Source of the DNA: Escherichia coli
Lineage (GTDB): Bacteria > Pseudomonadota > Gammaproteobacteria > Enterobacterales > Enterobacteriaceae
Reading direction: 5' to 3' (one strand)
Assembly (NCBI RefSeq): GCF_030013205.1
Contig: NZ_CP122648.1
DNA: 64,000 nt
This document shows positions 36,774 through 52,672 of this stretch, piece by piece. The notes beneath the pieces were generated by a model. The model was not told the DNA's origin. It saw only the letters and a program-made list of their open reading frames with translations, and did not search any database. The position numbers and the translations under genes were made by a program. Position 1 is the first letter of the stretch, and each line of letters opens with the position of its first letter.

Positions 36774-37146
36774 ACGCCTCTAATAATGGAATGTCAGCAG
36801 GGGCCAGTGGATATTGCAGCGCCTCTTCAGGTGAGCACCAGACCAGCGCCTGATGTTCATGTGCCTGTAACGTCCCGTGGAAGTCGGGTACATGCCAGGC
36901 ATGAAGATGGATAATCCGCCCCGACACTTCTCGCTGATGGCTGGCAACATAGTCACCAACAGTTGCTTCGATGCCCAGTTCTTCGTTTAACTCACGCACC
37001 AGCGCCTGCTGCTGGCTTTCATCCAGCTCGACTTTACCACCGGCAAACTCCCATAATCCCGCCTGATCGCTATGCGCGGGGCGTTGCGCGAGTAAAATTT
37101 TGCCATCACGTTCGATGATGGCGGCAACAACTTCAACCATTTTCAT
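36733..37146 (-). CDS. nudG: Nudix hydrolase NudG (CTP pyrophosphohydrolase)
   Basis: ORF 36733..37146; Nudix box GGKVELDESQQQALVRELNEELGI. Confidence 0.85.
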   Translation of the reverse strand: MKMVEVVAAIIERDGKILLAQRPAHSDQAGLWEFAGGKVELDESQQQALVRELNEELGIEATVGDYVASHQREVSGRIIHLHAWHVPDFHGTLQAHEHQALVWCSPEEALQYPLAPADIPLLEAFMALRAARPADLC

Positions 37147-37232
37147 AAATTACACACGGGTAGATAAGCGAAAAATGCCATAATATCCGCACTGTTGCTC
37201 AATCAGAAAGGCTTTATATTTAAGGAGTGCCT

Positions 37233-37853
37233 GTGCTAGACCGCCATCTTCATCCCCGAATTAAACCTTTGTTGCATCAGTGTGTGAAGGTGCTGGATAA
37301 ACCCGGCATTACGCCAGATGGTTTAACATTAGTGGGATTTGCCATCGGTGTGCTGGCACTGCCTTTTCTGGCGCTGGGCTGGTATCTGGCGGCGCTTGTC
37401 GTCATTTTGTTGAACAGGCTGCTTGATGGTCTGGACGGTGCGCTGGCGCGGCGCAGAGGGCTTACCGACGCGGGCGGCTTTCTCGATATTTCTCTCGATT
37501 TTCTCTTTTACGCGCTGGTGCCGTTTGGTTTTATTCTTGCTGCACCGGAGCAAAATGCGCTGGCAGGCGGCTGGCTGTTGTTTGCGTTTATCGGTACGGG
37601 CAGCAGTTTTCTCGCCTTTGCTGCACTGGCAGCAAAACATCAGATTGATAACCCCGGTTATGCACATAAGTCGTTTTACTATCTGGGGGGATTAACCGAA
37701 GGCACTGAAACGATCTTACTGTTTGTGCTGGGATGTTTATTCCCTGCATGGTTTGCGTGGTTTGCGTGGATCTTCGGTGCGTTGTGCTGGATGACGACCT
37801 TTACGCGGGTGTGGAGTGGGTATCTGACGCTGAAGTCGCTTCAGCGTCAGTAA
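37233..37853 (+). CDS. ynjF: CDP-alcohol phosphatidyltransferase-family inner membrane protein YnjF, 206 aa
   Basis: ORF 37227..37853; GTG at 37233 follows TAAGGAG by 6 nt; motif DGLDGALARR. Confidence 0.8.
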   Translation: MLDRHLHPRIKPLLHQCVKVLDKPGITPDGLTLVGFAIGVLALPFLALGWYLAALVVILLNRLLDGLDGALARRRGLTDAGGFLDISLDFLFYALVPFGFILAAPEQNALAGGWLLFAFIGTGSSFLAFAALAAKHQIDNPGYAHKSFYYLGGLTEGTETILLFVLGCLFPAWFAWFAWIFGALCWMTTFTRVWSGYLTLKSLQRQ

Positions 37854-37861
37854 TTGCAATG

Positions 37862-39169
37862 TTATTTGCTGCTGTCCGGGCCGCGTTCACCGGTTGCTAC
37901 CGGATTTTTTGGATCGCTGCTCCATTCGTACCAGCCGCCGTCGTAAACGGAGACGTTATTCCAGCCCATTGCTCGTGCGTACATAAAGGTTTCGGACGCG
38001 CGCCAGCCGGTGCCGCAGTAGAATGAAACTTGCTGATCTGGCTTGATATTCCATGCTTTCCACATAGCGGTAATATCATCGGCGCTACGCATGGTGCCAT
38101 CCGGGTTATGGAAATCTTCCATATGCGTCGAGTCGCTACCTGCGTGTCCCCAACGTGCTCCGGCTATTTCACCTTTTGGTTTAATATAGCTGTAACCGCT
38201 GGTCGTACCGATAAATTCTGGCCACGAACGAATGCTCACCAGCGATGCATCCTGGCGATGCAGCAGTCCACGCGCCTGTTCCATATCAAGCATCAGTTGC
38301 GGTTGTGCCGGGATCTTCACGCCGAAATCCGGTTCCGCTTTCACTTTCGGTGGCGTTCCGCGCTCAACGGGCAGTCCCGCGTCGGACCAGGTTTGCCAGC
38401 CGCCGTCCAGCAGGCGGACATCTTTCACGCCAGCGTAGAGCATAATTTGTGCCACACGCGCTGCAGCGTATACGTCACGCCCGTACAGAATGACCGTGGT
38501 GTCATGGCGAATGCCGTGTTTTGCCAACATCGCTTTTAGTTGTTCATCAGAAACTTTGTTCCACAGCGGTTCGCTTTCCACTTCGTTGGTATCGATGTAG
38601 TCAGCGCCGGGAATATGGCTGATAAGGTAAAGCTTAGGAGCGCCCCAGGCCGCTTCAATGACTTTCCAGTCACCGGCAGGTTTCGCCGTAACCTCTTTAC
38701 CTTGTTGCAGGTCGTGCAGCCATTGCGGATAAACCAGCTGCTCAAAATGCGGCAGTTTTTGGAGACGGGAAGGTTCGCTTAGCGCGTCACTCAGAATGGA
38801 GATATGCGTAAAACCTGCTTTTTGCAGTCGCGTTTTGACGGCGTCGACATCTTTGTCATTACCGTACAGCGCCACCGGAGCATCGGCTTTCAGGTTATGT
38901 TGCTTGATCCACGCGTTAAGCTGTTCGGTGCTCATTTTGTCGAGCCAGCTAGCAGAGAGGTTTAAGGCGGCAGGTTCATGACCAGAAGGGCCATTTAAGG
39001 TTTGTGGCCAGCCGTTATAAAACGCGCTGGGGCGAGTATCTATCGCTTTGCCATTTTGTTGTTGAAGCTGGTCAAGTGTAAGAGGCTTCGCCAGTTCAGC
39101 GGCCCACGAAGAAGCGCAAGCCAGCCCTAAAGCCATTGCCAGCGCGGTCATTTGAGAAACACGTTTCAT
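37862..39169 (-). CDS. ynjE: Periplasmic three-domain rhodanese (thiosulfate sulfurtransferase) YnjE, 435 aa
   Basis: ORF 37862..39184 trimmed to ATG 39169 (MKRVSQMTALAMALGLACASSWA...); active-site CGTGWR. Confidence 0.85.
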   Translation of the reverse strand: MKRVSQMTALAMALGLACASSWAAELAKPLTLDQLQQQNGKAIDTRPSAFYNGWPQTLNGPSGHEPAALNLSASWLDKMSTEQLNAWIKQHNLKADAPVALYGNDKDVDAVKTRLQKAGFTHISILSDALSEPSRLQKLPHFEQLVYPQWLHDLQQGKEVTAKPAGDWKVIEAAWGAPKLYLISHIPGADYIDTNEVESEPLWNKVSDEQLKAMLAKHGIRHDTTVILYGRDVYAAARVAQIMLYAGVKDVRLLDGGWQTWSDAGLPVERGTPPKVKAEPDFGVKIPAQPQLMLDMEQARGLLHRQDASLVSIRSWPEFIGTTSGYSYIKPKGEIAGARWGHAGSDSTHMEDFHNPDGTMRSADDITAMWKAWNIKPDQQVSFYCGTGWRASETFMYARAMGWNNVSVYDGGWYEWSSDPKNPVATGERGPDSSK

Positions 39170-39235
39170 CGAAAATCCCGACATTGTAGTTTTGAGTGCG
39201 CCATTCTGAACTGACGCATTGGGAAAAACTTTGCG

Positions 39236-39889
39236 TTATCGCAGTTTGTTGTAATTTTCTGACCACTGCGCCATATCCAGAACAGAACTATCAGCAGGAA
39301 CATCCTGGAGATCGTGCGTTACCTGAACGACTGGGATCGCCTGGGCGCGAACTTCGCTGAACACCCACTGGCGAAAATTATCGCGCAGAGCCACATCAAG
39401 ACGGCTGAATGGCTCATCCAGTAGCAACGCTTTTGGCTGAGCGAGAAGAGCGCGAAGCAGAGCAACGCGCGCTCGCTGACCGCCAGACAAAGTGGCAGGA
39501 TCCTGATGGAACATACCGCCAAGCCCCGCACGCTCCAGCGCATCATTTACCGCATCGCGCCTTGCAACACCTTTGAGTGCCGCTGGCAGAGCCAGCAGTA
39601 AATTTTGCCCGACGCTGAACTGGTCAAATAACAGTGCATCCTGGAAAAGAATGCCAATCTGACGCTGTGCGGTGGGTAGCATGTCAATCCGTTGCTCATT
39701 GAGCCATAGCTCACCTGTACAAGAAAACTGTCCGGCCAGCGCACCAATCATCCATGAAAACAGAGTGGATTTTCCACAGCCAGACGGCCCCATTAACGTG
39801 ACAATGTCACCTTTACTCACCGTAAAGTTAACGTTTTTCAGCAAGCGGCTTTCTGGTAAACGTAGCGAAACATTTTTCACGCAGAGCAT
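39236..39889 (-). CDS. ynjD: ABC transporter ATP-binding protein YnjD, 217 aa
   Basis: ORF 39236..39976 trimmed to ATG 39889; Walker A GPSGCGKST, signature LSGGQRARV, Walker B LLLDEP; ATGA overlap with ynjC stop. Confidence 0.85.
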   Translation of the reverse strand: MLCVKNVSLRLPESRLLKNVNFTVSKGDIVTLMGPSGCGKSTLFSWMIGALAGQFSCTGELWLNEQRIDMLPTAQRQIGILFQDALLFDQFSVGQNLLLALPAALKGVARRDAVNDALERAGLGGMFHQDPATLSGGQRARVALLRALLAQPKALLLDEPFSRLDVALRDNFRQWVFSEVRAQAIPVVQVTHDLQDVPADSSVLDMAQWSENYNKLR

Positions 39890-41424
39890 TAGCGGAGTCC
39901 TTGTCTGACATAACCTACCCATTTTGCGACTAACGCGGTCAGGGCAAAAATAATAAGCGGTAATAGCAGTTGCCATAAAGCCTGGGCGGCGAGAATACCG
40001 TTGCTGCCGCCGCTGCTTAATGCCACCGCCTCAGTGGTGAGCGTCGGAAAACGCCCCGCGCCCAGCCACAGCGTCGGCATATACTGCGCAATACTGACTG
40101 AAAATCCCACCGCGAAGGCAATCAGCGTAGGGCGTAGCATAAGCGGACATTTCACGTAAAAGAAGATTTTGGCCCGCGACCAGCCCAGTGTTTGCGCAAT
40201 CAAAATTAACCGTGAATCAATGCGCTGCCAGGCGGGTTGCAGGATAAACAGCATCCACGGCATTACCCACAGCAGATGCCCCCAGACCACCGCCGTCCAG
40301 CTTCCATCCAGGTTCAGCCATAGCGCCAGCGTGTACTGGCACGCCACCAGCGGCAGAGCGGGTAATAAAATGGGCAACCATAGCCACAACTGGCGACGCT
40401 GTGGCCCCCATTCCAGCCACAGCAGTAACAGGAGCAAAGCGATGAATGCCGCCACCAGCCCCATTGTCAGGCTGTTGATGAGCGCTTCACTATTGATCGT
40501 CGACTGATCCGCGAGGATCGCCAGCAGAACCACACACAGCACACCGGTTAAGGGTAAAAAACTCGCCAGCGTAATGCCTGGCAATAAAGGCGTGGCAGGC
40601 TTACGAACGCCATCTACGCGGGGAATAGTACGCCGCCAGCTACGCCATAGCAGATAGCCCAGCAAAACGTAGGCGGCGAGTAACAGCATCAGCAGCAGGC
40701 TGGCGAGTGCGCCTTTCGTTTGTTGATCGGCGTCGCCCTGAGTTAACCACTGCCAGCTAATTACTGCCAGCGTCGGGGGATTACCTGGCCCAAGGATAAT
40801 CGCCACATCCACGACCGACAGCGACCAGGCGACAATCGCCAGCATCGCCATTGCCAGTGCAGGTGCGACGGAGGGCAACAACAGCCAGTTCAGGCATTGC
40901 CAGCGGCTGTAGCCCAGCGAATCCAGTACAATAACTTGCTGCAACAGCCGTTTTTCGCTCAATACTGCCGCTAAGAGCCACAGCAGAAATGCGCTTTCTT
41001 TCACTGCAAGGGTGAGGCCCAGACCGATGCCAAATCGATCCATTGGCGGAGTGAAATACGGGAAATAGTCATAAAGCAGCCCTCCGTCAGCAAAGAGCAG
41101 AAGGGCGCTGGTGGCAAAAGCCACATGGGGAATGGCGAGCAGCCACGGCAGACGGGCGCACATACGCTGCCATTTCGGCCCTGGCCACAGCGTCACAATC
41201 ACCAGCAGGGCAATCAACAACGCCCCGACCGCCGCGATGGTTGTCGACACCAGCGTTGCCAGTAATGCCTGCGGTAACTGTGGATCGGCAAATAACGTCT
41301 GCCAGTGTGTCAACGACAAAGCAGGCGATATCAGCGTGAGAGCTGCCGGGATCAGCGGTGCATAAATCACCGCCACCATCGCCCACAGCAAAAAGATTAA
41401 TGCGTACCGTAACGGTGTAGCCAT
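39889..41424 (-). CDS. ynjC: ABC transporter permease YnjC (fused two-domain), 511 aa
   Basis: ORF 39889..41448 trimmed to ATG 41424. Confidence 0.85.
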   Translation of the reverse strand: MATPLRYALIFLLWAMVAVIYAPLIPAALTLISPALSLTHWQTLFADPQLPQALLATLVSTTIAAVGALLIALLVIVTLWPGPKWQRMCARLPWLLAIPHVAFATSALLLFADGGLLYDYFPYFTPPMDRFGIGLGLTLAVKESAFLLWLLAAVLSEKRLLQQVIVLDSLGYSRWQCLNWLLLPSVAPALAMAMLAIVAWSLSVVDVAIILGPGNPPTLAVISWQWLTQGDADQQTKGALASLLLMLLLAAYVLLGYLLWRSWRRTIPRVDGVRKPATPLLPGITLASFLPLTGVLCVVLLAILADQSTINSEALINSLTMGLVAAFIALLLLLLWLEWGPQRRQLWLWLPILLPALPLVACQYTLALWLNLDGSWTAVVWGHLLWVMPWMLFILQPAWQRIDSRLILIAQTLGWSRAKIFFYVKCPLMLRPTLIAFAVGFSVSIAQYMPTLWLGAGRFPTLTTEAVALSSGGSNGILAAQALWQLLLPLIIFALTALVAKWVGYVRQGLR

Positions 41425-42563
41425 TCTTGTTCCAGCGCATTTACCCAACCTGCGTGCGGTTCAGCCAGTACCGGCGGCAGATCCTGCGGCATTCTTGATT
41501 GCAATATTTCGCGCTGCCCGTCAGGCAGTTTTTGCGGATCGAGAACCGAAGGATCGCCCCAGACAGCAGGGTCTGCTTTACGCAGTTGTGCATCGGGTGA
41601 GAGCAGGAAATTGGCAACTACCTTCGCCGCAGCACTGGCATTCGCGTTGGCGGGAATGGTGACGAAATGCACGTTGCCAATCATTCCCTCGCTAAAGCCA
41701 AAGCTGTAACTGCTGGCGGGTAAATCGCCGCTGGCGATTTTTTGCTGCGCATGAGCAGGATTAAAGGTCAGCGACAGGCGCAATGTGCCGGCTTTCAGCA
41801 GAGCATCCATCCGCGCGGGCGAAGGCGGGAAATCCTTTCCTTCGCGCCACAAATACGGATGCAGCGCATCAAGATATTGCCACAAGGGAGCAGTGACACG
41901 GGCGAAAGTCGCATCGTCCGGCGCTTCTTTTAATGCGGCGGGATCGGGCGTCAGCATAATCAGCAACTGTTCAAGAAACGCCGTGCCGGTAAAGTCCGGT
42001 GGGCGCGGATAGGTAACCGTACCGGGATTGGCTTTAGCAAACTCCAGTAAGGCTTGCGGCGTTTGTGGTGACTGTGGCGTAACATCGCGGCGGGCGATAA
42101 ACGTCAATTGCGCGCCGCCCCAGGGCGATTCCGCACCTTGCGTTGGCACTGAAAAATCTTCCCGCACCGGCAGCTGTGTGTCGACATAGCGCCAGTTGGG
42201 CAGAGTCTCCACCCAGCCCGTTTGTAATAAATTGGCCTCTTTTAAGGTGCGGAAGTTTTCGCCGTTCACCCAGAGCAGATCCACCGAACCGCCTGTTTTG
42301 CGTCCGGCAGCAGCTTCGGTCTGAATGCGCTTCACCGCGTCTGCGGCATCCGCGAGACGAACAATCTTCAGGTTTATAGCGTAATGGGTTTTCATCTCGC
42401 CGCTAACCCAGTCGAGATAGCGGTTAATTGCGGTATCGCCGCCCCAGGCGTTAAACCAGACGGTTTGCCCTTTGGCGTCGTTTTTGATTTCCTGCCAGTC
42501 ACTGGCATGTGTTGCCAAAGAAAACAGCGATAACAATCCCAGCAACCACCCACAATGGCGCAT
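41397..42563 (-). CDS. ynjB: ABC transporter periplasmic substrate-binding protein YnjB, 388 aa
   Basis: ORF 41397..42566; signal peptide; overlaps ynjC start by 28 bp. Confidence 0.85.
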   Translation of the reverse strand: MRHCGWLLGLLSLFSLATHASDWQEIKNDAKGQTVWFNAWGGDTAINRYLDWVSGEMKTHYAINLKIVRLADAADAVKRIQTEAAAGRKTGGSVDLLWVNGENFRTLKEANLLQTGWVETLPNWRYVDTQLPVREDFSVPTQGAESPWGGAQLTFIARRDVTPQSPQTPQALLEFAKANPGTVTYPRPPDFTGTAFLEQLLIMLTPDPAALKEAPDDATFARVTAPLWQYLDALHPYLWREGKDFPPSPARMDALLKAGTLRLSLTFNPAHAQQKIASGDLPASSYSFGFSEGMIGNVHFVTIPANANASAAAKVVANFLLSPDAQLRKADPAVWGDPSVLDPQKLPDGQREILQSRMPQDLPPVLAEPHAGWVNALEQEWLHRYGTH

Positions 42564-42572
42564 CATCTCTCC

Positions 42573-43121
42573 TTAAGAACGTTTTTCAGGAATACGGCAC
42601 AGCCCCTGAGCGGGGATCGCCAGGGCAGAATTAAAACGAGCCGACAGGTTTTGCAGGCCGATCAATGCCGTCAGTTCGGTGAGCGCCTGAGCGTCAAAAT
42701 GCGCAGCCAGTCGGGTACGCAGGGCATCATCGACTGTTGGCGGTGTGACGCTTGCGGCTTCGGCGTACTCCAGCGCCAGCCGTTCTTCATCGCTAAAGAG
42801 CGGGCTTTGCCGCCAGTCAGCCACTGCCAGCAGTTTATCGGTGCTGCCAGTGCGCTCGGCGACTTTCATACTGGTGATATCCACGCAAAACTCACACAGA
42901 CACATTTGCGCAATGCGCGCGCTGACAAGCGATCGCACTACCGGATCCAGCGGTGAGCGTTTGCGCTCCAGCCAGCCGACAAACATCGACACCAGATAAA
43001 AGATAAACGGGATCCGCCCCCACCAGCGAATCGGGCTTAGCACCTCGCCGTAATGGCGACGATGCAGCCACGCCTGCGGACGTAAAATGAAAGGAATTTT
43101 GCTAAGCGGCGGTAAACCCAT
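42573..43121 (-). CDS. ynjA: Carboxymuconolactone decarboxylase (AhpD-like) family protein YnjA, 182 aa
   Basis: ORF 42573..43121. Confidence 0.8.
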   Translation of the reverse strand: MGLPPLSKIPFILRPQAWLHRRHYGEVLSPIRWWGRIPFIFYLVSMFVGWLERKRSPLDPVVRSLVSARIAQMCLCEFCVDITSMKVAERTGSTDKLLAVADWRQSPLFSDEERLALEYAEAASVTPPTVDDALRTRLAAHFDAQALTELTALIGLQNLSARFNSALAIPAQGLCRIPEKRS

Positions 43122-43828
43122 CAGGCATTCCTCTTCTGGCGCTCAAGCCATATTTTCTTCGCCATAAAAATCACCACGGTCAGGGCAAACAGAATAAACA
43201 GTCCGGTGACAAACCAGAAGGTACCGCCTGTTAACATGCTGCCCGCCCAGGAATAAACAATAGTCGCTGGTAACTGACCAAGCCCGGTGGCGATAAAAAA
43301 CGAGCGAAAACGTATTGAAGTCAAACCGGCAGCATAGCTTACGGGATCAAAAGGCACAAAAGGCAATAATCGGCATACCAGAATGGTGTGTTTACCATAG
43401 CGGGTAAAAAAGCCGTCCATACTATTGAGTACCGTTTTACCCGTTAACTTTTCCACCACTTCGCGGCCCATCACTCTGGCGATAAAAAAGCACAGCGCCG
43501 CGCCGGCCATCGAACTGGTCCACGACAGCAAGCCGCCCCAGAACGCGCCAAACAGCGACGCATTGGCAAAGGTGATCAAAAACGCAGGTAGCGGTGCAGC
43601 AATGGCCTGTAAAATCATCAACAAGAACGAGACAACTGCCGCCAGTGCGCCGTAAGACTGAATAAAGCGTTCTATACCCTGTTGGTCCACGGCGGCAAAC
43701 GCCGCAACGCTGCGATTGATAAACTCATGGACGCCGGGAAGCAGCGCCCATGCCAGCAGCATAGCGAACAACAGGATGATGAGGGTTATACGGTAGTACC
43801 AGATTTTTCGCGATTGCATCTTCATCAT
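43121..43828 (-). CDS. ydjZ: DedA/TVP38-TMEM64 family inner membrane protein YdjZ, 235 aa
   Basis: ORF 43121..43828; stop overlaps ynjA start. Confidence 0.8.
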   Translation of the reverse strand: MMKMQSRKIWYYRITLIILLFAMLLAWALLPGVHEFINRSVAAFAAVDQQGIERFIQSYGALAAVVSFLLMILQAIAAPLPAFLITFANASLFGAFWGGLLSWTSSMAGAALCFFIARVMGREVVEKLTGKTVLNSMDGFFTRYGKHTILVCRLLPFVPFDPVSYAAGLTSIRFRSFFIATGLGQLPATIVYSWAGSMLTGGTFWFVTGLFILFALTVVIFMAKKIWLERQKRNA

Positions 43829-43842
43829 CCTTTATCCTGGCT

Positions 43843-44520
43843 TTATTCGGTGATTTTAAAGGTAACCGTTGCCAGCGTGTTATCCGCCGGGAGAACCGAG
43901 GCATTGCCTTTGAATTTAACTTCCCCTCGTTTTTCAACCGCACCATAAGTGTATGTTGCATTGCTGACGATGCCGACCGGGCAGCTATCCAGACACACCA
44001 GGCAACCCGTTTTCTTCTCTTCTGCTGCCGTTAAATTACCGCCAAAGCGCATGTCCAGTTTCTTGCCATTACTGTCAACAATCACTTCATCGAAGGAATA
44101 CGCTTTTGCCGCCCCTTGCCAGTTGACCGAAATATCCAGTTTGCTGCCTGTGACATGAGTCGTTTCTTTATTATCCATCGTCATGTTTTCGCCTGGCGTA
44201 CCACCTGCCTCTTTCAGGGCTTCATAAAATGCTTTCGGGGTCGCATAACCCATAAACAGCGATTTATGTCCGTTGGAGCCATCTTTAAACACAATACCGT
44301 GACGAGTGTCGTCGGTGAGGAAACGACCATTAATTTGCACCAGCATGGTTACCGTATGGTTATTAGCATCGACACGCAGCGGTTGGCTGTTCGAAAGTTC
44401 GTCGTATTCCACTTTTGCCGCCGCATTCTCTTTTTGATCGCAGCCGCTAAGCCCAGCAACAGCCAGTAAGCAGAGTGCAGCCAGTCCTTTTTTCCATGAC
44501 GCTGAATAATGTTGCAACAT
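43843..44520 (-). CDS. ydjY: Ferredoxin-like lipoprotein YdjY, 225 aa
   Basis: ORF 43843..44682 trimmed to ATG 44520 (MLQHYSASWKKGLAALCLLAVAGLSGC lipobox); CxxCxxxCP motif. Confidence 0.75.
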   Translation of the reverse strand: MLQHYSASWKKGLAALCLLAVAGLSGCDQKENAAAKVEYDELSNSQPLRVDANNHTVTMLVQINGRFLTDDTRHGIVFKDGSNGHKSLFMGYATPKAFYEALKEAGGTPGENMTMDNKETTHVTGSKLDISVNWQGAAKAYSFDEVIVDSNGKKLDMRFGGNLTAAEEKKTGCLVCLDSCPVGIVSNATYTYGAVEKRGEVKFKGNASVLPADNTLATVTFKITE

Positions 44521-44524
44521 CGTT

Positions 44525-45235
44525 CTATCCTTCATTTTTTGGGTGAGTAAGTGGGCTGCGGCGCGAAGCAGACAGATCCACATGTTTGTGTCGGGCGTAG
44601 AGTTTGGCGAGCTGGACGAGAATAAACAGCGCCAGGCCCGCCAGACAGAGTTGTAAAATAAAGCGCAGCGTAATGCCTTCATTGGCGAGATCGCTTGCCA
44701 TCACGGTATAAATAACAATACCGGGCAGGGTCGTGAGTGCCGAAATAAGGGTATAAGGCCAGAAGGTGATTGTGGTTAATCCGTAAGCGTAATTTTGAAT
44801 ATTGTAAGGAAACAACGGGATTAAGCGGGTCAGAATAAGAAAATCAATACCGTTACGCGCAATGCCTTTTTCAATGGCCTGAAAGGTATGGCTATGGCCA
44901 ACGTATTTCAGCAGTAAATCACGTCCCAGCCAGCGCGCCAGCAGGAATGAGCACGAGGAGGCCAGCGTGGCGGCAATTAATGATAGTAGTGTCCCTAAGA
45001 GCGGGCCAAAAACTATTCCTCCAGCGATCACCAGTATGCTTCCTGGTAACAGAAAGAGGGTGGCAATGATGAATAACAGAATATAGAGGCTATAACCGAA
45101 CAATCCGCTCTGGCGAATGAGTGTCAGTAAGTGAGGTAAATCGGTGAGCAGCTCGAATAAACCGAAAGCGTGGAAAGCGTAAATGACCAGCGCAAAAATA
45201 AGACAGGCAAAAAGAAATTTACGCTCAGCGTTCAT
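44525..45235 (-). CDS. ydjX: DedA/TVP38-TMEM64 family inner membrane protein YdjX, 236 aa
   Basis: ORF 44525..45283 trimmed to ATG 45235 (MNAERKFLFACLIF...). Confidence 0.8.
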   Translation of the reverse strand: MNAERKFLFACLIFALVIYAFHAFGLFELLTDLPHLLTLIRQSGLFGYSLYILLFIIATLFLLPGSILVIAGGIVFGPLLGTLLSLIAATLASSCSFLLARWLGRDLLLKYVGHSHTFQAIEKGIARNGIDFLILTRLIPLFPYNIQNYAYGLTTITFWPYTLISALTTLPGIVIYTVMASDLANEGITLRFILQLCLAGLALFILVQLAKLYARHKHVDLSASRRSPLTHPKNEG

Positions 45236-45401
45236 TGTGGAGTTTCCTATATCAAACTTGATAATAGAGAAGTGGTCAGACAACTAAAAACGCAGTGACG
45301 GTATAACAAAGGGCGGCAGGCAACAAATCATTACTGACAGTTTGTTGATTTTTCTCAAGGTTAATTCTCCTGACCCAGTTTGAGCCAGGAGAACAGCTAA
45401 A

Positions 45402-46208
45402 TTAGCGGCGGAAGGTCGCCCAGACGGGGGCGTGATCGGACGGTTTTTCCATGCTGCGGATTTCATAGTCGATGCCGGTTTCTACGCAACATTCTGCCAG
45501 CGGTTGGCTGGCGAGAAGCAGGTCGATACGCAGACCGCGGTTATCGTCAAAACCTTTTGAGCGGTAATCAAACCATGAGAAACGATCGGCTGTTTGCGGA
45601 TTCGCCTGGCGGAAGGTATCGACCAACCCCCAGCTCATCAGTCTCTCCATCCATTCGCGTTCTTCCGGAAGGAAAGAGCATTTTCCGGTACGCAGCCAGC
45701 GCTTACGGTTCTCTTCGCCAATGCCAATATCCAGGTCGCCAGGACTGATATTCATATCGCCCATAATCAGCACCGGATTTTCACGCTTGAGTTCGGTTTC
45801 CAGGTAGTTTTGCAGATTCTGATAAAACTGCGCCTTTGCCGGGAATTTTATCGGATGGTCGCGGCTTTCACCCTGCGGGAAGTAACCGTTGATCACGGTG
45901 ACATTGCCCAGCGGTGAGGGGATTTCCGCCATAATAATCCGCCGCTGCGCCTCTTCGTCGTCACCGGGAAAACCGCGACGCACGGCAATCGGCGTCTCTT
46001 TGGTCAGCAGCGCCACGCCATAATGGCCTTTCTGCCCGTGATAAAACACGTTGTAGCCGAGCTTCGCCACCTCTTCGAGTGGAAACATATCGTCATGAAC
46101 TTTTGTCTCCTGCAGGCCAATCACATCCGGCTGGTGCTTTTCGACGATGGCTTCAAGCTGGTGAGGTCTGGCGCGCAGGCCGTTGATATTAAAAGAGACA
46201 AATTTCAT
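45402..46208 (-). CDS. xthA: Exodeoxyribonuclease III XthA, 268 aa
   Basis: ORF 45402..46220 trimmed to ATG 46208 ([14 protein letters not shown]...). Confidence 0.95.
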
Positions 46209-46473
46209 AGTCGCTGCCATTTATTCAGATAAAGAGTGCGTGGATGGTAGCAGAATTTCGCTTTGCGTACCGCCTGTTGTTAAGTGATTTGATCGATGGT
46301 TGTTAATGATGTCAACGATGGCGCAAAAAATGCCCGCTTTTGGTGCGCGCTGCGTCAGAATGGCGCAGTAATTTCCAGTAAATTTCGTCAATGATCACAA
46401 TTCCAGAATTATATTTTACTTCTGCATAACATTGCGTTTTTTATTCACCCACATCGCAAACGTATTCACTTTA

Positions 46474-46492
46474 TATGCACTTTAAATGCATA
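46474..46492. promoter_or_regulatory. Palindrome TATGCAC-TTTAAA-TGCATA upstream of astC; candidate ARG box (ArgR site)
   Basis: Perfect 6-bp arms with AT-rich spacer about 90-110 bp upstream of the sigma54 start; a second ARG-like half TATTCACTTTATAT directly upstream. Confidence 0.35.
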
Positions 46493-46556
46493 TGGTTTGG
46501 TTATAACTCCTTGATTTCCAGTTAGCCTCCGCCGTTTATGCACTTTTATCACTGGC

Positions 46557-46572
46557 TGGCACGAACCCTGCA
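46557..46572 (+). promoter_or_regulatory. Sigma54 (RpoN) -24/-12 promoter of astCADBE
   Basis: TGGCAC-GAACC-CTGCA matches TGGCAC-N5-TTGCA (GG and GC spaced correctly). Confidence 0.65.
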
Positions 46573-46608
46573 ATCTACATTTACAGCGTAAACATTACTT
46601 ATTATTAA

Positions 46609-52672
<6,064 letters not shown>

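Follow-up and report, generated by a model that had tools for sequence, protein, structure and literature searches.

Several described systems border on the one considered here. The DedA superfamily comprises the UptA undecaprenyl phosphate (UndP) flippases of COG0586 and the eukaryotic scramblases TMEM41B and VMP1, and YdjX and YdjZ of Escherichia coli have the VTT/DedA domain in common with them. COG0398 DedA proteins are reported without the UndP-flippase signature residues, resemble eukaryotic scramblases, and are most frequently fused to MerA-type pyridine-nucleotide-disulfide oxidoreductase domains. Among sulfurtransferases, Tyr353, Cys412, and Arg417 have catalytic roles in EanB, the anaerobic ergothioneine synthase (PMC10903977). 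A 2026 review states that no specific selenium transporter is known in prokaryotes (PMC13188914). Here we describe ydjXYZ-ynjABCD and ynjE, which lie at positions 37862-45235 of a 64,000-nucleotide stretch of E. coli DNA (contig NZ_CP122648.1, assembly GCF_030013205.1; “the window” is this whole stretch). They form a core-genome block of E. coli that is known but uncharacterised. With a probability of roughly 0.4, the block is the enterobacterial version of a small envelope system with a patchy distribution among selenocysteine-using anaerobes, and operates as a thiol-based relay that moves a chalcogen across the inner membrane under anaerobiosis, selenium being the favoured element and sulfane sulfur the second choice. 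Relative to the searchable literature, what is new is how YdjY and DedA proteins are arranged across phyla, which fusions they form, and how they connect with selenium and lipid genes.

RefSeq annotates eight minus-strand genes from ydjX to ynjE, with limits exactly equal to 37862-45235. The operon opens with ydjX (44525-45235), which encodes a DedA/VTT inner-membrane protein (COG0398, TVP38/TMEM64-type), and continues after a 4-nt gap with ydjY (43843-44520), which encodes a periplasmic lipoprotein that is the signature protein of the system. A 14-nt gap leads to ydjZ (43121-43828), the gene for a second DedA/VTT membrane protein, which overlaps by 1 nt (TGATG) with ynjA (42573-43121), for a cytoplasmic AhpD/CMD-like protein. 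Next, 9 nt away and with a Shine-Dalgarno sequence (TAAGGAG) spanning the preceding stop codon, is ynjB (41397-42563), which encodes a periplasmic substrate-binding protein of the PRK11622 subfamily and overlaps by 28 nt with ynjC (39889-41424), for a fused double permease of the ATP-binding cassette (ABC) type. A 1-nt overlap (TAATG) joins ynjC to ynjD (39236-39889), for an ABC ATPase without a C-terminal regulatory domain, and 66 nt separate ynjD from ynjE (37862-39169), for a periplasmic EanB-like rhodanese to which the title of a published structure paper gives three domains. This order and tight coupling, read from the junctions and from RefSeq alike, were correctly anticipated in an original prediction made from the DNA alone, as were the ynjA/ydjZ and ynjC/ynjB overlaps and the DedA, AhpD-like, and binding-protein-dependent importer domains, with which profile calls agree; the ATGA that it placed at the ynjD/ynjC junction is instead TAATG. 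Its view that ynjE directly follows the operon holds for position, but ynjE is listed as its own transcription unit, with a promoter-like -10 element in the 66-nt gap. The window from 37000 to 47000 is 100% identical to E. coli ETEC4079, and this 10-kb stretch is carried by 5424 of 5426 complete E. coli genomes and is, therefore, part of the core genome. No riboswitch or known RNA element was found in the region, where the sole match had an E value of 0.74 and fell under the gathering score.

Published regulatory data tie the block to anaerobic growth. Chromatin immunoprecipitation sequencing (ChIP-seq) of FNR and RNA-seq show direct activation of two separate units, ydjXYZ-ynjABCD through a site at -60.5 and ynjE through one at -41.5 (PMC3688515). 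An FNR-box-like palindrome upstream of ydjX, TTGAGAAAAATCAA (45345-45358), has one mismatch to TTGAT-N4-ATCAA, and no other site in that intergenic region comes within two mismatches; the ydjX operon has both a box at an activating upstream position and published ChIP and expression support. For ynjE, no FNR box with two or fewer mismatches occurs within 350 nt upstream, where the best FNR-like sequence is a three-mismatch half-site (39386-39399). The published ynjE ChIP peak, located by its offset from the ydjX peak, falls at the 3' end of ynjD (~39340). A consensus scan of the ynjD-ynjE gap yields a promoter-like element on the minus strand, TTCAGA-16-TACAAT (39183-39210). Independent component analysis of transcriptomes places ydjXYZ-ynjABCD, ynjE, yedEF, and yjiLM in one anaerobic, FNR/ArcA-dependent iModulon, for which its authors proposed a relation to molybdenum and selenium usage; such a role has been in print, from co-expression, since 2021 (PMC7888660). 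Oxygen depletion in E. coli O157:H7 induces ydjY, ynjE, and yjiM along with the FNR regulon. A lack of co-regulation between ynjE and the operon had been named beforehand as an observation that would speak against grouping them; because FNR activates both units and both belong to one iModulon, the opposite is the case, and ynjE is separately transcribed but co-regulated with ydjXYZ-ynjABCD. BaeR induces ynjABCD 1.4-1.6-fold, an effect that was judged indirect by the authors of that work and that is not used as evidence here.

YdjY defines the system. It matches family NF040466/PF27149 at 145.9 bits (cutoff 50), PF27149 is found on all homologues, and the family is small, with 387 representatives among 1.84 billion proteins. 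The protein has a lipobox (LSGC27) and a C173-x2-C176-x3-C180-P motif, and Asp at position +2 after the lipidated Cys implies inner-membrane retention. C173, C176, and C180 are invariant in 26 YdjY sequences from three or more phyla, along with ~35 further invariant residues (among them R73, H74, N112, M113, W134, D149, and D178), and identity across Proteobacteria, Campylobacterota, and Bacillota is 46-76%. YdjY had been called ferredoxin-like, which does not survive scrutiny: it has three invariant Cys rather than the four of CxxCxxCxxxCP, it has no significant match to Fer4 profiles and no ferredoxin fold, and its lipobox is of the Sec type (MLQHYSASWKKGLAALCLLAVAGLSGC) without a twin-arginine motif, as in its homologues. 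A 4Fe-4S ferredoxin was rejected accordingly. A selenoprotein form of YdjY was likewise considered and dismissed for three loci missed by the open reading frame (ORF) caller, which have intact Cys-containing ORFs with no in-frame TGA. Single-sequence queries found no relatives of YdjY or YnjB in the PDB. Fusions connect YdjY to rhodanese (P0271, P0274, P0350) and to DedA domains (P0311, P0242, one of which may be a read-through), and Foldseek searches of the AlphaFold database return YdjY-domain proteins that bear rhodanese names. In a further fusion, the 478-amino-acid P0358, an OlsE-like membrane lipid hydroxylase domain (104 bits) precedes a C-terminal YdjY domain, which is another hint that YdjY may act at or on membrane lipids.

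When one genome of each species was scanned for the YdjY pattern, 127 stretches contained the protein; the best 80 loci, representing 43 taxon groups, were analysed. They come from Escherichia, Citrobacter, Peptostreptococcus, Finegoldia, Gemella, Facklamia, Catonella, Clostridium, Bacillus benzoevorans, Sulfurospirillum, Campylobacter concisus, Syntrophobacterales, Desulfarculus, Thermincola, and a spirochaete. A VTT/DedA gene lies within 10 kb of ydjY at 74 of the 80 loci (38 groups) and, in a 6-kb census, at 74 of 77 loci, where the gap has a median of 16 bp; YdjZ homologues follow ydjY at once across phyla (200-277 bits). YdjY and DedA/VTT proteins thus constitute the invariant core, to which rhodaneses, thiol/disulfide partners, YnjBCD, YnjF, selenium genes, and ArsS-type genes have been recruited repeatedly. 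The most frequent of the additional partners is a protein of ~130 amino acids with four transmembrane segments (4-TM) and a VWLEMR motif, with no NCBIfam match, that is encoded beside ydjY or fused N-terminally to a YdjZ-like/VTT protein in 30 groups (for example, L063:3311-3688, L059:10735-11157, and the N-terminal ~150 amino acids of L029:10746-11939). A Fer4/CCG (HdrD-like) protein is encoded nearby in 17 groups and is fused to the VTT protein in Desulfobacterota. ArsS, TIGR04282, TIGR04283, and/or an APH-like kinase occur near ydjY in 11 groups, a YnjB/YnjC/YnjD-type importer in 10, a rhodanese in eight, and a YnjF-type CDP-alcohol phosphatidyltransferase in six. Rhodaneses that adjoin ydjY all have a signal peptide or lipobox, except for the 314-319-amino-acid Facklamia forms (L077, L080), and the Facklamia cluster includes CcdA and a ResA-like protein as cytoplasmic redox partners. 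PRK11622-subfamily YnjB adjoins ydjY in Clostridia and Bacilli (509 bits). Two loci from metagenome-assembled Firmicute genomes (L046, L059) encode YdjY, the 4-TM protein, YdjX, YdjZ, Fer4/CCG, YnjF, YnjB, YnjC, YnjC, and YnjD, and nearly replicate the E. coli block with its convergent ynjF gene included, so the link of YnjBCD and YnjF to the system is genuine. In an enteric contig labelled Salmonella (L091:13750-14935), ynjA (CMD, 189 amino acids) lies upstream of ynjF on the opposite strand with an 8-nt overlap by which the two are translationally coupled; the module is, therefore, rearranged rather than fixed. In Sulfurospirillum arcachonense, ydjY (L002:8933-9747) stands beside nif-type genes (NifB-like radical SAM, NifT, sigma-54 activator) and two small ferredoxins, and in Desulfarculus (L004/L052) it stands beside a Fer4/CCG-VTT fusion of 590-616 amino acids.

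YdjX and YdjZ are 28% identical to each other, have 4-6 hydrophobic segments in a crude hydropathy scan, and have orthologues in L091 that carry PF09335 (VTT_dom). Their NCBIfam matches to UptA and DedA are weak; the UptA equivalog, with a cutoff of 250 bits, is not reached (28.6 and 33.3 bits). YnjA matches PF02627 (CMD) at 5e-8 and has C76EFC79, and its PDB relatives are AhpD/CMD proteins, among which it belongs; no hydrophobic segment was found in it. Its best NCBIfam match, NF053654 (“YciW-related (seleno)protein”), reaches 102.6 bits against a cutoff of 310, which indicates homology only.

Selenium genes recur beside ydjY. SelD (361-365 bits), YedF (186 bits), SelA/SelB, or a selenocysteine-lyase-like desulfurase adjoin it in seven of the 43 groups, each of the seven having SelD or YedF nearby and six having YedF. 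In one operon (L026) the order is VTT-HdrD fusion, YdjY, SelD, and the Facklamia cluster abuts selD, a yedF-like gene, selB, and selA. All of the named YdjY genera that can be found in the tables of Peng et al. (2016) use selenocysteine, including the unusual Bacilli Gemella (5/5 genomes) and Facklamia, against a bacterial background of 21.5%. The papers on selenium comparative genomics that were checked and the Haft selenoprotein preprint mention none of these genes. In Facklamia languida (L077:4879-5600), a PrdB/GrdB-like ORF has an in-frame TGA in “SPG-U-YIC” (UxxC), with the frame running on for ~83 codons, and is probably an unannotated selenoprotein inside the YdjY cluster. The same 155-amino-acid truncated ORF cluster is present at five Facklamia loci and in Bacillus benzoevorans.

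YnjE is made with a signal peptide, and its mature form has a single Cys (Cys385), in the six-residue loop C385GTGWR, as befits a rhodanese. Crystal structures of YnjE itself (3IPO, 2WLR) are matched, and so, at 302 bits over 395 residues, is a PDB “Sulfurtransferase” series (6KTV/6H98) that we take to be EanB, with variants that match the published EanB mutants C339A, C370A, and Y353F. Tyr326, Cys385, and Arg390 of YnjE align with the catalytic EanB residues Tyr353, Cys412, and Arg417. RefSeq names the product a thiosulfate sulfurtransferase, and the FNR and iModulon papers describe it as a molybdopterin synthase sulfurtransferase (PMC3688515, PMC7888660). In vitro, YnjE has no apparent thiosulfate:glutathione activity and uses thiosulfate and 3-mercaptopyruvate poorly (PMC10215317). 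The Seebeck laboratory counts it among EanB-like enzymes of unassigned function that may sulfurise heterocycles.

YnjBCD is a type I ABC importer, with substrate-binding protein, double permease, and ATPase encoded together. YnjB matches PRK11622 at 557 bits and belongs to SBP_bac_8; its AlphaFold2 model has a pLDDT of 89.8. It is a cluster-D-type substrate-binding protein. By profile and fold, its nearest solved structures are 4r6y, which binds 2-aminoethylphosphonate, and PotD, FbpA, MctA, and AfuA; the ligands of this set are 2-aminoethylphosphonate, polyamines, iron, metal-citrate, and sugar phosphates. Aromatic and acidic side chains predominate among the invariant positions of YnjB (W40, W98, D95, E102, D136, E145, Y185, D190, W239), none of which is a Cys. 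YnjC has 14 hydrophobic segments in the crude hydropathy scan, and its counterpart in Firmicute loci is two separate genes; YnjD has Walker A (GPSGCGKS) and signature (LSGGQ) motifs. No equivalog assignment was obtained for thiamine (ThiQ, 132 bits against 245), sulfate (TIGR00968, 134 against 343; CysA NF008105, 106 against 502), or 2-aminoethylphosphonate (PhnT2, 142 against 458; PhnU2, 37 against 593). Weak ModB, CysT, and CysA matches prompted consideration of bare oxyanion import (selenite, sulfate, molybdate), which is disfavoured because the neighbours of YnjB bind 2-aminoethylphosphonate, PotD-type ligands, iron, citrate, or sugar phosphates and because its invariant residues are aromatic or acidic. 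The literature on a YnjBCD substrate or on YdjY yields only transcriptomics and screens, which agrees with the earlier statement that no substrate is established; the poor performance of YnjE with thiosulfate and 3-mercaptopyruvate is in keeping with it, and the earlier suggestion of a substrate that is sulfur-like or redox-active is, in general terms, supported.

From the conserved, fusion-backed module, its anaerobic co-regulation with yedEF, and its proximity to selenium genes, we infer a thiol-based chalcogen relay. YnjE would carry the element in the periplasm as a perselenide or persulfide on Cys385 and would exchange it with the Cys triad of YdjY; YdjX and YdjZ would mediate its passage through the inner membrane; and the cytoplasmic CxxC protein YnjA would accept or reduce it for SelD-dependent anaerobic use, a task that an HdrD-like Fer4/CCG domain may take over in other phyla. 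YnjBCD would import some organic small molecule tied to this chemistry. Within this scheme, which element is carried, in what sequence and which way it moves, and what YnjBCD and YnjF do are all proposals. A bolder form of the same idea, that YdjY, COG0398 DedA/VTT proteins, an extracytoplasmic rhodanese, and thiol-reductase partners constitute a dedicated prokaryotic pathway for selenium acquisition and trafficking, perhaps with YnjF-type enzymes making a lipid-linked thiol or selenol carrier that the DedA scramblases flip, is rather unlikely as a whole.

Several observations weigh against the relay. The putative selenium involvement of these genes rests on genomic context and co-expression, and the census from which much of that context comes relied on ORFs that we called crudely and clustered by BLAST, with NCBIfam checks of only one or two members of each cluster, in lineages several of which are related to each other and hence not independent. 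Anaerobes are enriched in selenocysteine use, which inflates the phylogenetic correlation. SelD and SelAB neighbours may mark selenoprotein-encoding clusters, that is, selenium users rather than suppliers, as the Facklamia UxxC ORF and families with selenoprotein members, such as ArsS, suggest; ArsS/TIGR04282/TIGR04283 neighbours are commoner (11/43 groups) than SelD/YedF (7/43); and selD in E. coli is parted from the block by unrelated genes. The 4-TM partner, present in 30 of the 43 groups, is absent from E. coli and the enterics, and ydjY is missing from L091. Those DedA/VTT relatives that have been characterised scramble lipids or flip UndP and do not carry ions or chalcogens. The relay explains neither YnjF nor YnjB, which resembles a binder of organic or cationic ligands with no conserved Cys.

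In a rival reading, YnjE, as a periplasmic EanB-like enzyme, would attach sulfur (or selenium) from polysulfide or persulfide to a heterocycle or other organic acceptor, with YnjBCD importing the substrate or product and with YdjY, YdjX/YdjZ, and YnjA supplying or recycling sulfane sulfur through the membrane. The extent of the match to 6KTV/6H98 (302 bits, 395 residues), the retained Tyr326, Cys385, and Arg390, the Seebeck laboratory's placement of YnjE, and its poor use of thiosulfate and 3-mercaptopyruvate (PMC10215317) all fit such a thiolation, as do the aromatic and acidic invariants of YnjB and its nearest relatives, which bind organic cations or zwitterions (PotD, 2-aminoethylphosphonate, opines). 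We nevertheless consider it rather unlikely: the SGYxYIK motif occurs only in enteric YnjE and not in rhodaneses at other YdjY loci, no hercynine-forming methyltransferase was seen near the cluster, the SelD/YedF/SelAB neighbours and yedEF co-expression are explained less well than by selenium, and the EanB identity of the PDB entries comes from our own recognition and the variant pattern. YnjF and the resemblance of COG0398 DedA proteins to eukaryotic scramblases would find a place if YnjBCD imported a polar head-group precursor from which YnjF, with Kennedy-like kinase and nucleotidyltransferase enzymes in other phyla, built an unusual phospholipid or lipid-linked sugar, possibly with sulfur, selenium, or arsenic, to be flipped by DedA/VTT proteins and acted on at its outer-face head group by YdjY and rhodanese. 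YnjF-type genes in six groups, including inside Firmicute clusters, the 8-nt ynjA/ynjF overlap in L091, and the OlsE-like/YdjY fusion P0358 point in this direction, together with the closeness of YnjB, YnjC, and YnjD to 2-aminoethylphosphonate importer components, their nearest relatives of those characterised, and with recurrent neighbours that include APH/choline-kinase-like, CofC-like TIGR04282, family 2 glycosyltransferase TIGR04283, MprF-N-like “flippase-like”, and nucleoside hydrolase proteins. The E. coli cluster has no kinase, nucleotidyltransferase, or glycosyltransferase genes, however, and we know of no unusual anaerobic E. coli lipid; the head-group idea stacks one supposition on another and does not by itself account for cytoplasmic disulfide-reductase-like partners, which makes a lipid-carrier function improbable.

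Metalloid chemistry has its own claim on the same neighbourhoods. Three-cysteine sites are classic As(III) ligands, and the Cys triad of YdjY could bind As(III) or Sb(III) in an organo-arsenic (“arsenosugar”) accessory or metalloid-detoxification system in which DedA proteins and rhodaneses handle thio-arsenicals. ArsS TIGR04167 (448 bits, cutoff 300), TIGR04282 (155-193 bits), and TIGR04283 (196-250 bits), which carry NCBI arsenosugar names, recur in 11 of the 43 YdjY groups, but those names were carried over from cyanobacteria, all three families are absent from E. coli and Citrobacter loci, neither ArsM nor ars resistance genes were seen among the recurrent neighbours, and FNR regulation and yedEF co-expression do not suggest an arsenic response. 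We regard an arsenic function as quite improbable. Finally, piecemeal annotation could be right and the genes unrelated, with a cytoplasmic role for YnjE as a sulfurtransferase for molybdopterin synthesis, thiamine-like import by YnjBCD, and general membrane homeostasis as the task of the DedA proteins YdjX/YdjZ. Naming of YnjE in PMC3688515 and PMC7888660 and the Joint Genome Institute label of “putative thiamine transport” for some YnjB homologues favour this; yet published work treats YnjE, which has a signal peptide, as periplasmic (PMC10215317), ThiQ, CysA, and PhnT2 scores are far under family cutoffs, and the same families co-occur and fuse across phyla, which would not be expected of unrelated genes. 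An unrelated set is, accordingly, very improbable.

Outside the eight genes, ynjF (37233-37853, plus strand) is a candidate functional member. It encodes a CDP-alcohol phosphatidyltransferase with NCBIfam matches under cutoff to PIP and archaetidylinositol-phosphate synthases, and it is convergent with ynjE, 8 bp away. YnjF-like genes lie inside the YdjY clusters of five non-enteric taxon groups, and ynjF probably belongs with the operon and ynjE. Between the convergent genes is a hairpin, CTGACGCTGAAG-CGA-CTTCAGCGTCAG (37824-37850), with a perfect 12-bp stem and a folding energy of -22.7 kcal/mol (z-score -7.7); it lies inside the last nine codons of ynjF and 11 nt past the ynjE stop, and is a candidate bidirectional terminator or 3' stabiliser. 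The selenophosphate synthetase gene selD (30406-31449, plus strand; RefSeq), given here for context, is 6.4 kb from the end of ynjE. The interval 30406-33409 of the window holds selD and topB, with ydjA upstream, and gdhA, ynjH, nudG (CTP pyrophosphohydrolase), and ynjF lie between selD/topB and ynjE. In this strain topB and gdhA are separated by an inserted IS1397 (IS3 family), whose transposase gene (~33516-34864) has a programmed frameshift. Farther off, ydjE (~24436-25794), a major facilitator superfamily transporter gene, carries an internal stop in the matching genome, where it is annotated as a pseudogene.

Bacterial acquisition and routing of trace selenium is still a missing pathway, for which the block is a concrete and testable candidate, as it is for sulfane sulfur. 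It also addresses the function of COG0398 DedA proteins, the closest bacterial relatives of eukaryotic TMEM41B/VMP1. E. coli provides a genetically tractable handle, an FNR-induced set of eight or nine non-essential genes, whose core partners are conserved, fused, and near selenium genes across phyla. A selenium pathway with a lipid-linked carrier, if true, would imply a new role for a DedA subfamily and a new kind of chalcogen transport. If the element is sulfur or the product is a thiolated metabolite, the block would still define the role of the EanB-like YnjE and of a YdjY fold without solved relatives.

Comparison with known systems places the block between several of them. By profile and fold, YnjB, YnjC, and YnjD come closest, among characterised systems, to the PhnSTUV (2-aminoethylphosphonate) and PotABCD (polyamine) importers, but scores are far under family cutoffs and YnjB is in its own PRK11622 subfamily with distinct invariant residues. 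The ArsS/TIGR04282/TIGR04283 (radical SAM/selenodomain-associated) set co-locates with the YdjY-VTT core as noted above; it does not occur in the E. coli cluster, and the arsenosugar chemistry ascribed to it is putative in anaerobes. YeeE/YeeD (TsuA/TsuB) thiosulfate uptake and YedE/YedF likewise pair a membrane protein with a small sulfur carrier for chalcogen uptake, and yedEF is linked to the block by the common iModulon and by YedF beside ydjY; their protein families are unrelated to those of the block, and the selenium role of YedE/YedF is itself only predicted. EanB has ~40% identity to YnjE over the whole catalytic region, with an identical CGTGWR loop and the catalytic Tyr/Cys/Arg kept. 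Unlike cytoplasmic EanB, YnjE is exported to the periplasm, EanB Tyr375 is replaced by Thr, and EanB acts on trimethylhistidine and is encoded with the histidine trimethyltransferase EanA, whereas no methyltransferase is annotated in the gene tables around ynjE. The Mer relay has the same architecture for a soft element, with periplasmic CxxC protein MerP, membrane Cys pairs in MerT, and cytoplasmic oxidoreductase MerA; YdjY is not homologous to MerP nor are the DedA proteins to MerT, the element differs and is only proposed here, and FNR takes the place of a mer regulator. Within the DedA superfamily, YdjX and YdjZ differ from UptA (COG0586) as COG0398 proteins, a group reported, as said, without the flippase signature, and, whereas the published association of COG0398 is with aerobic metabolism, YdjX/YdjZ-type members are FNR-induced and found in strict anaerobes.

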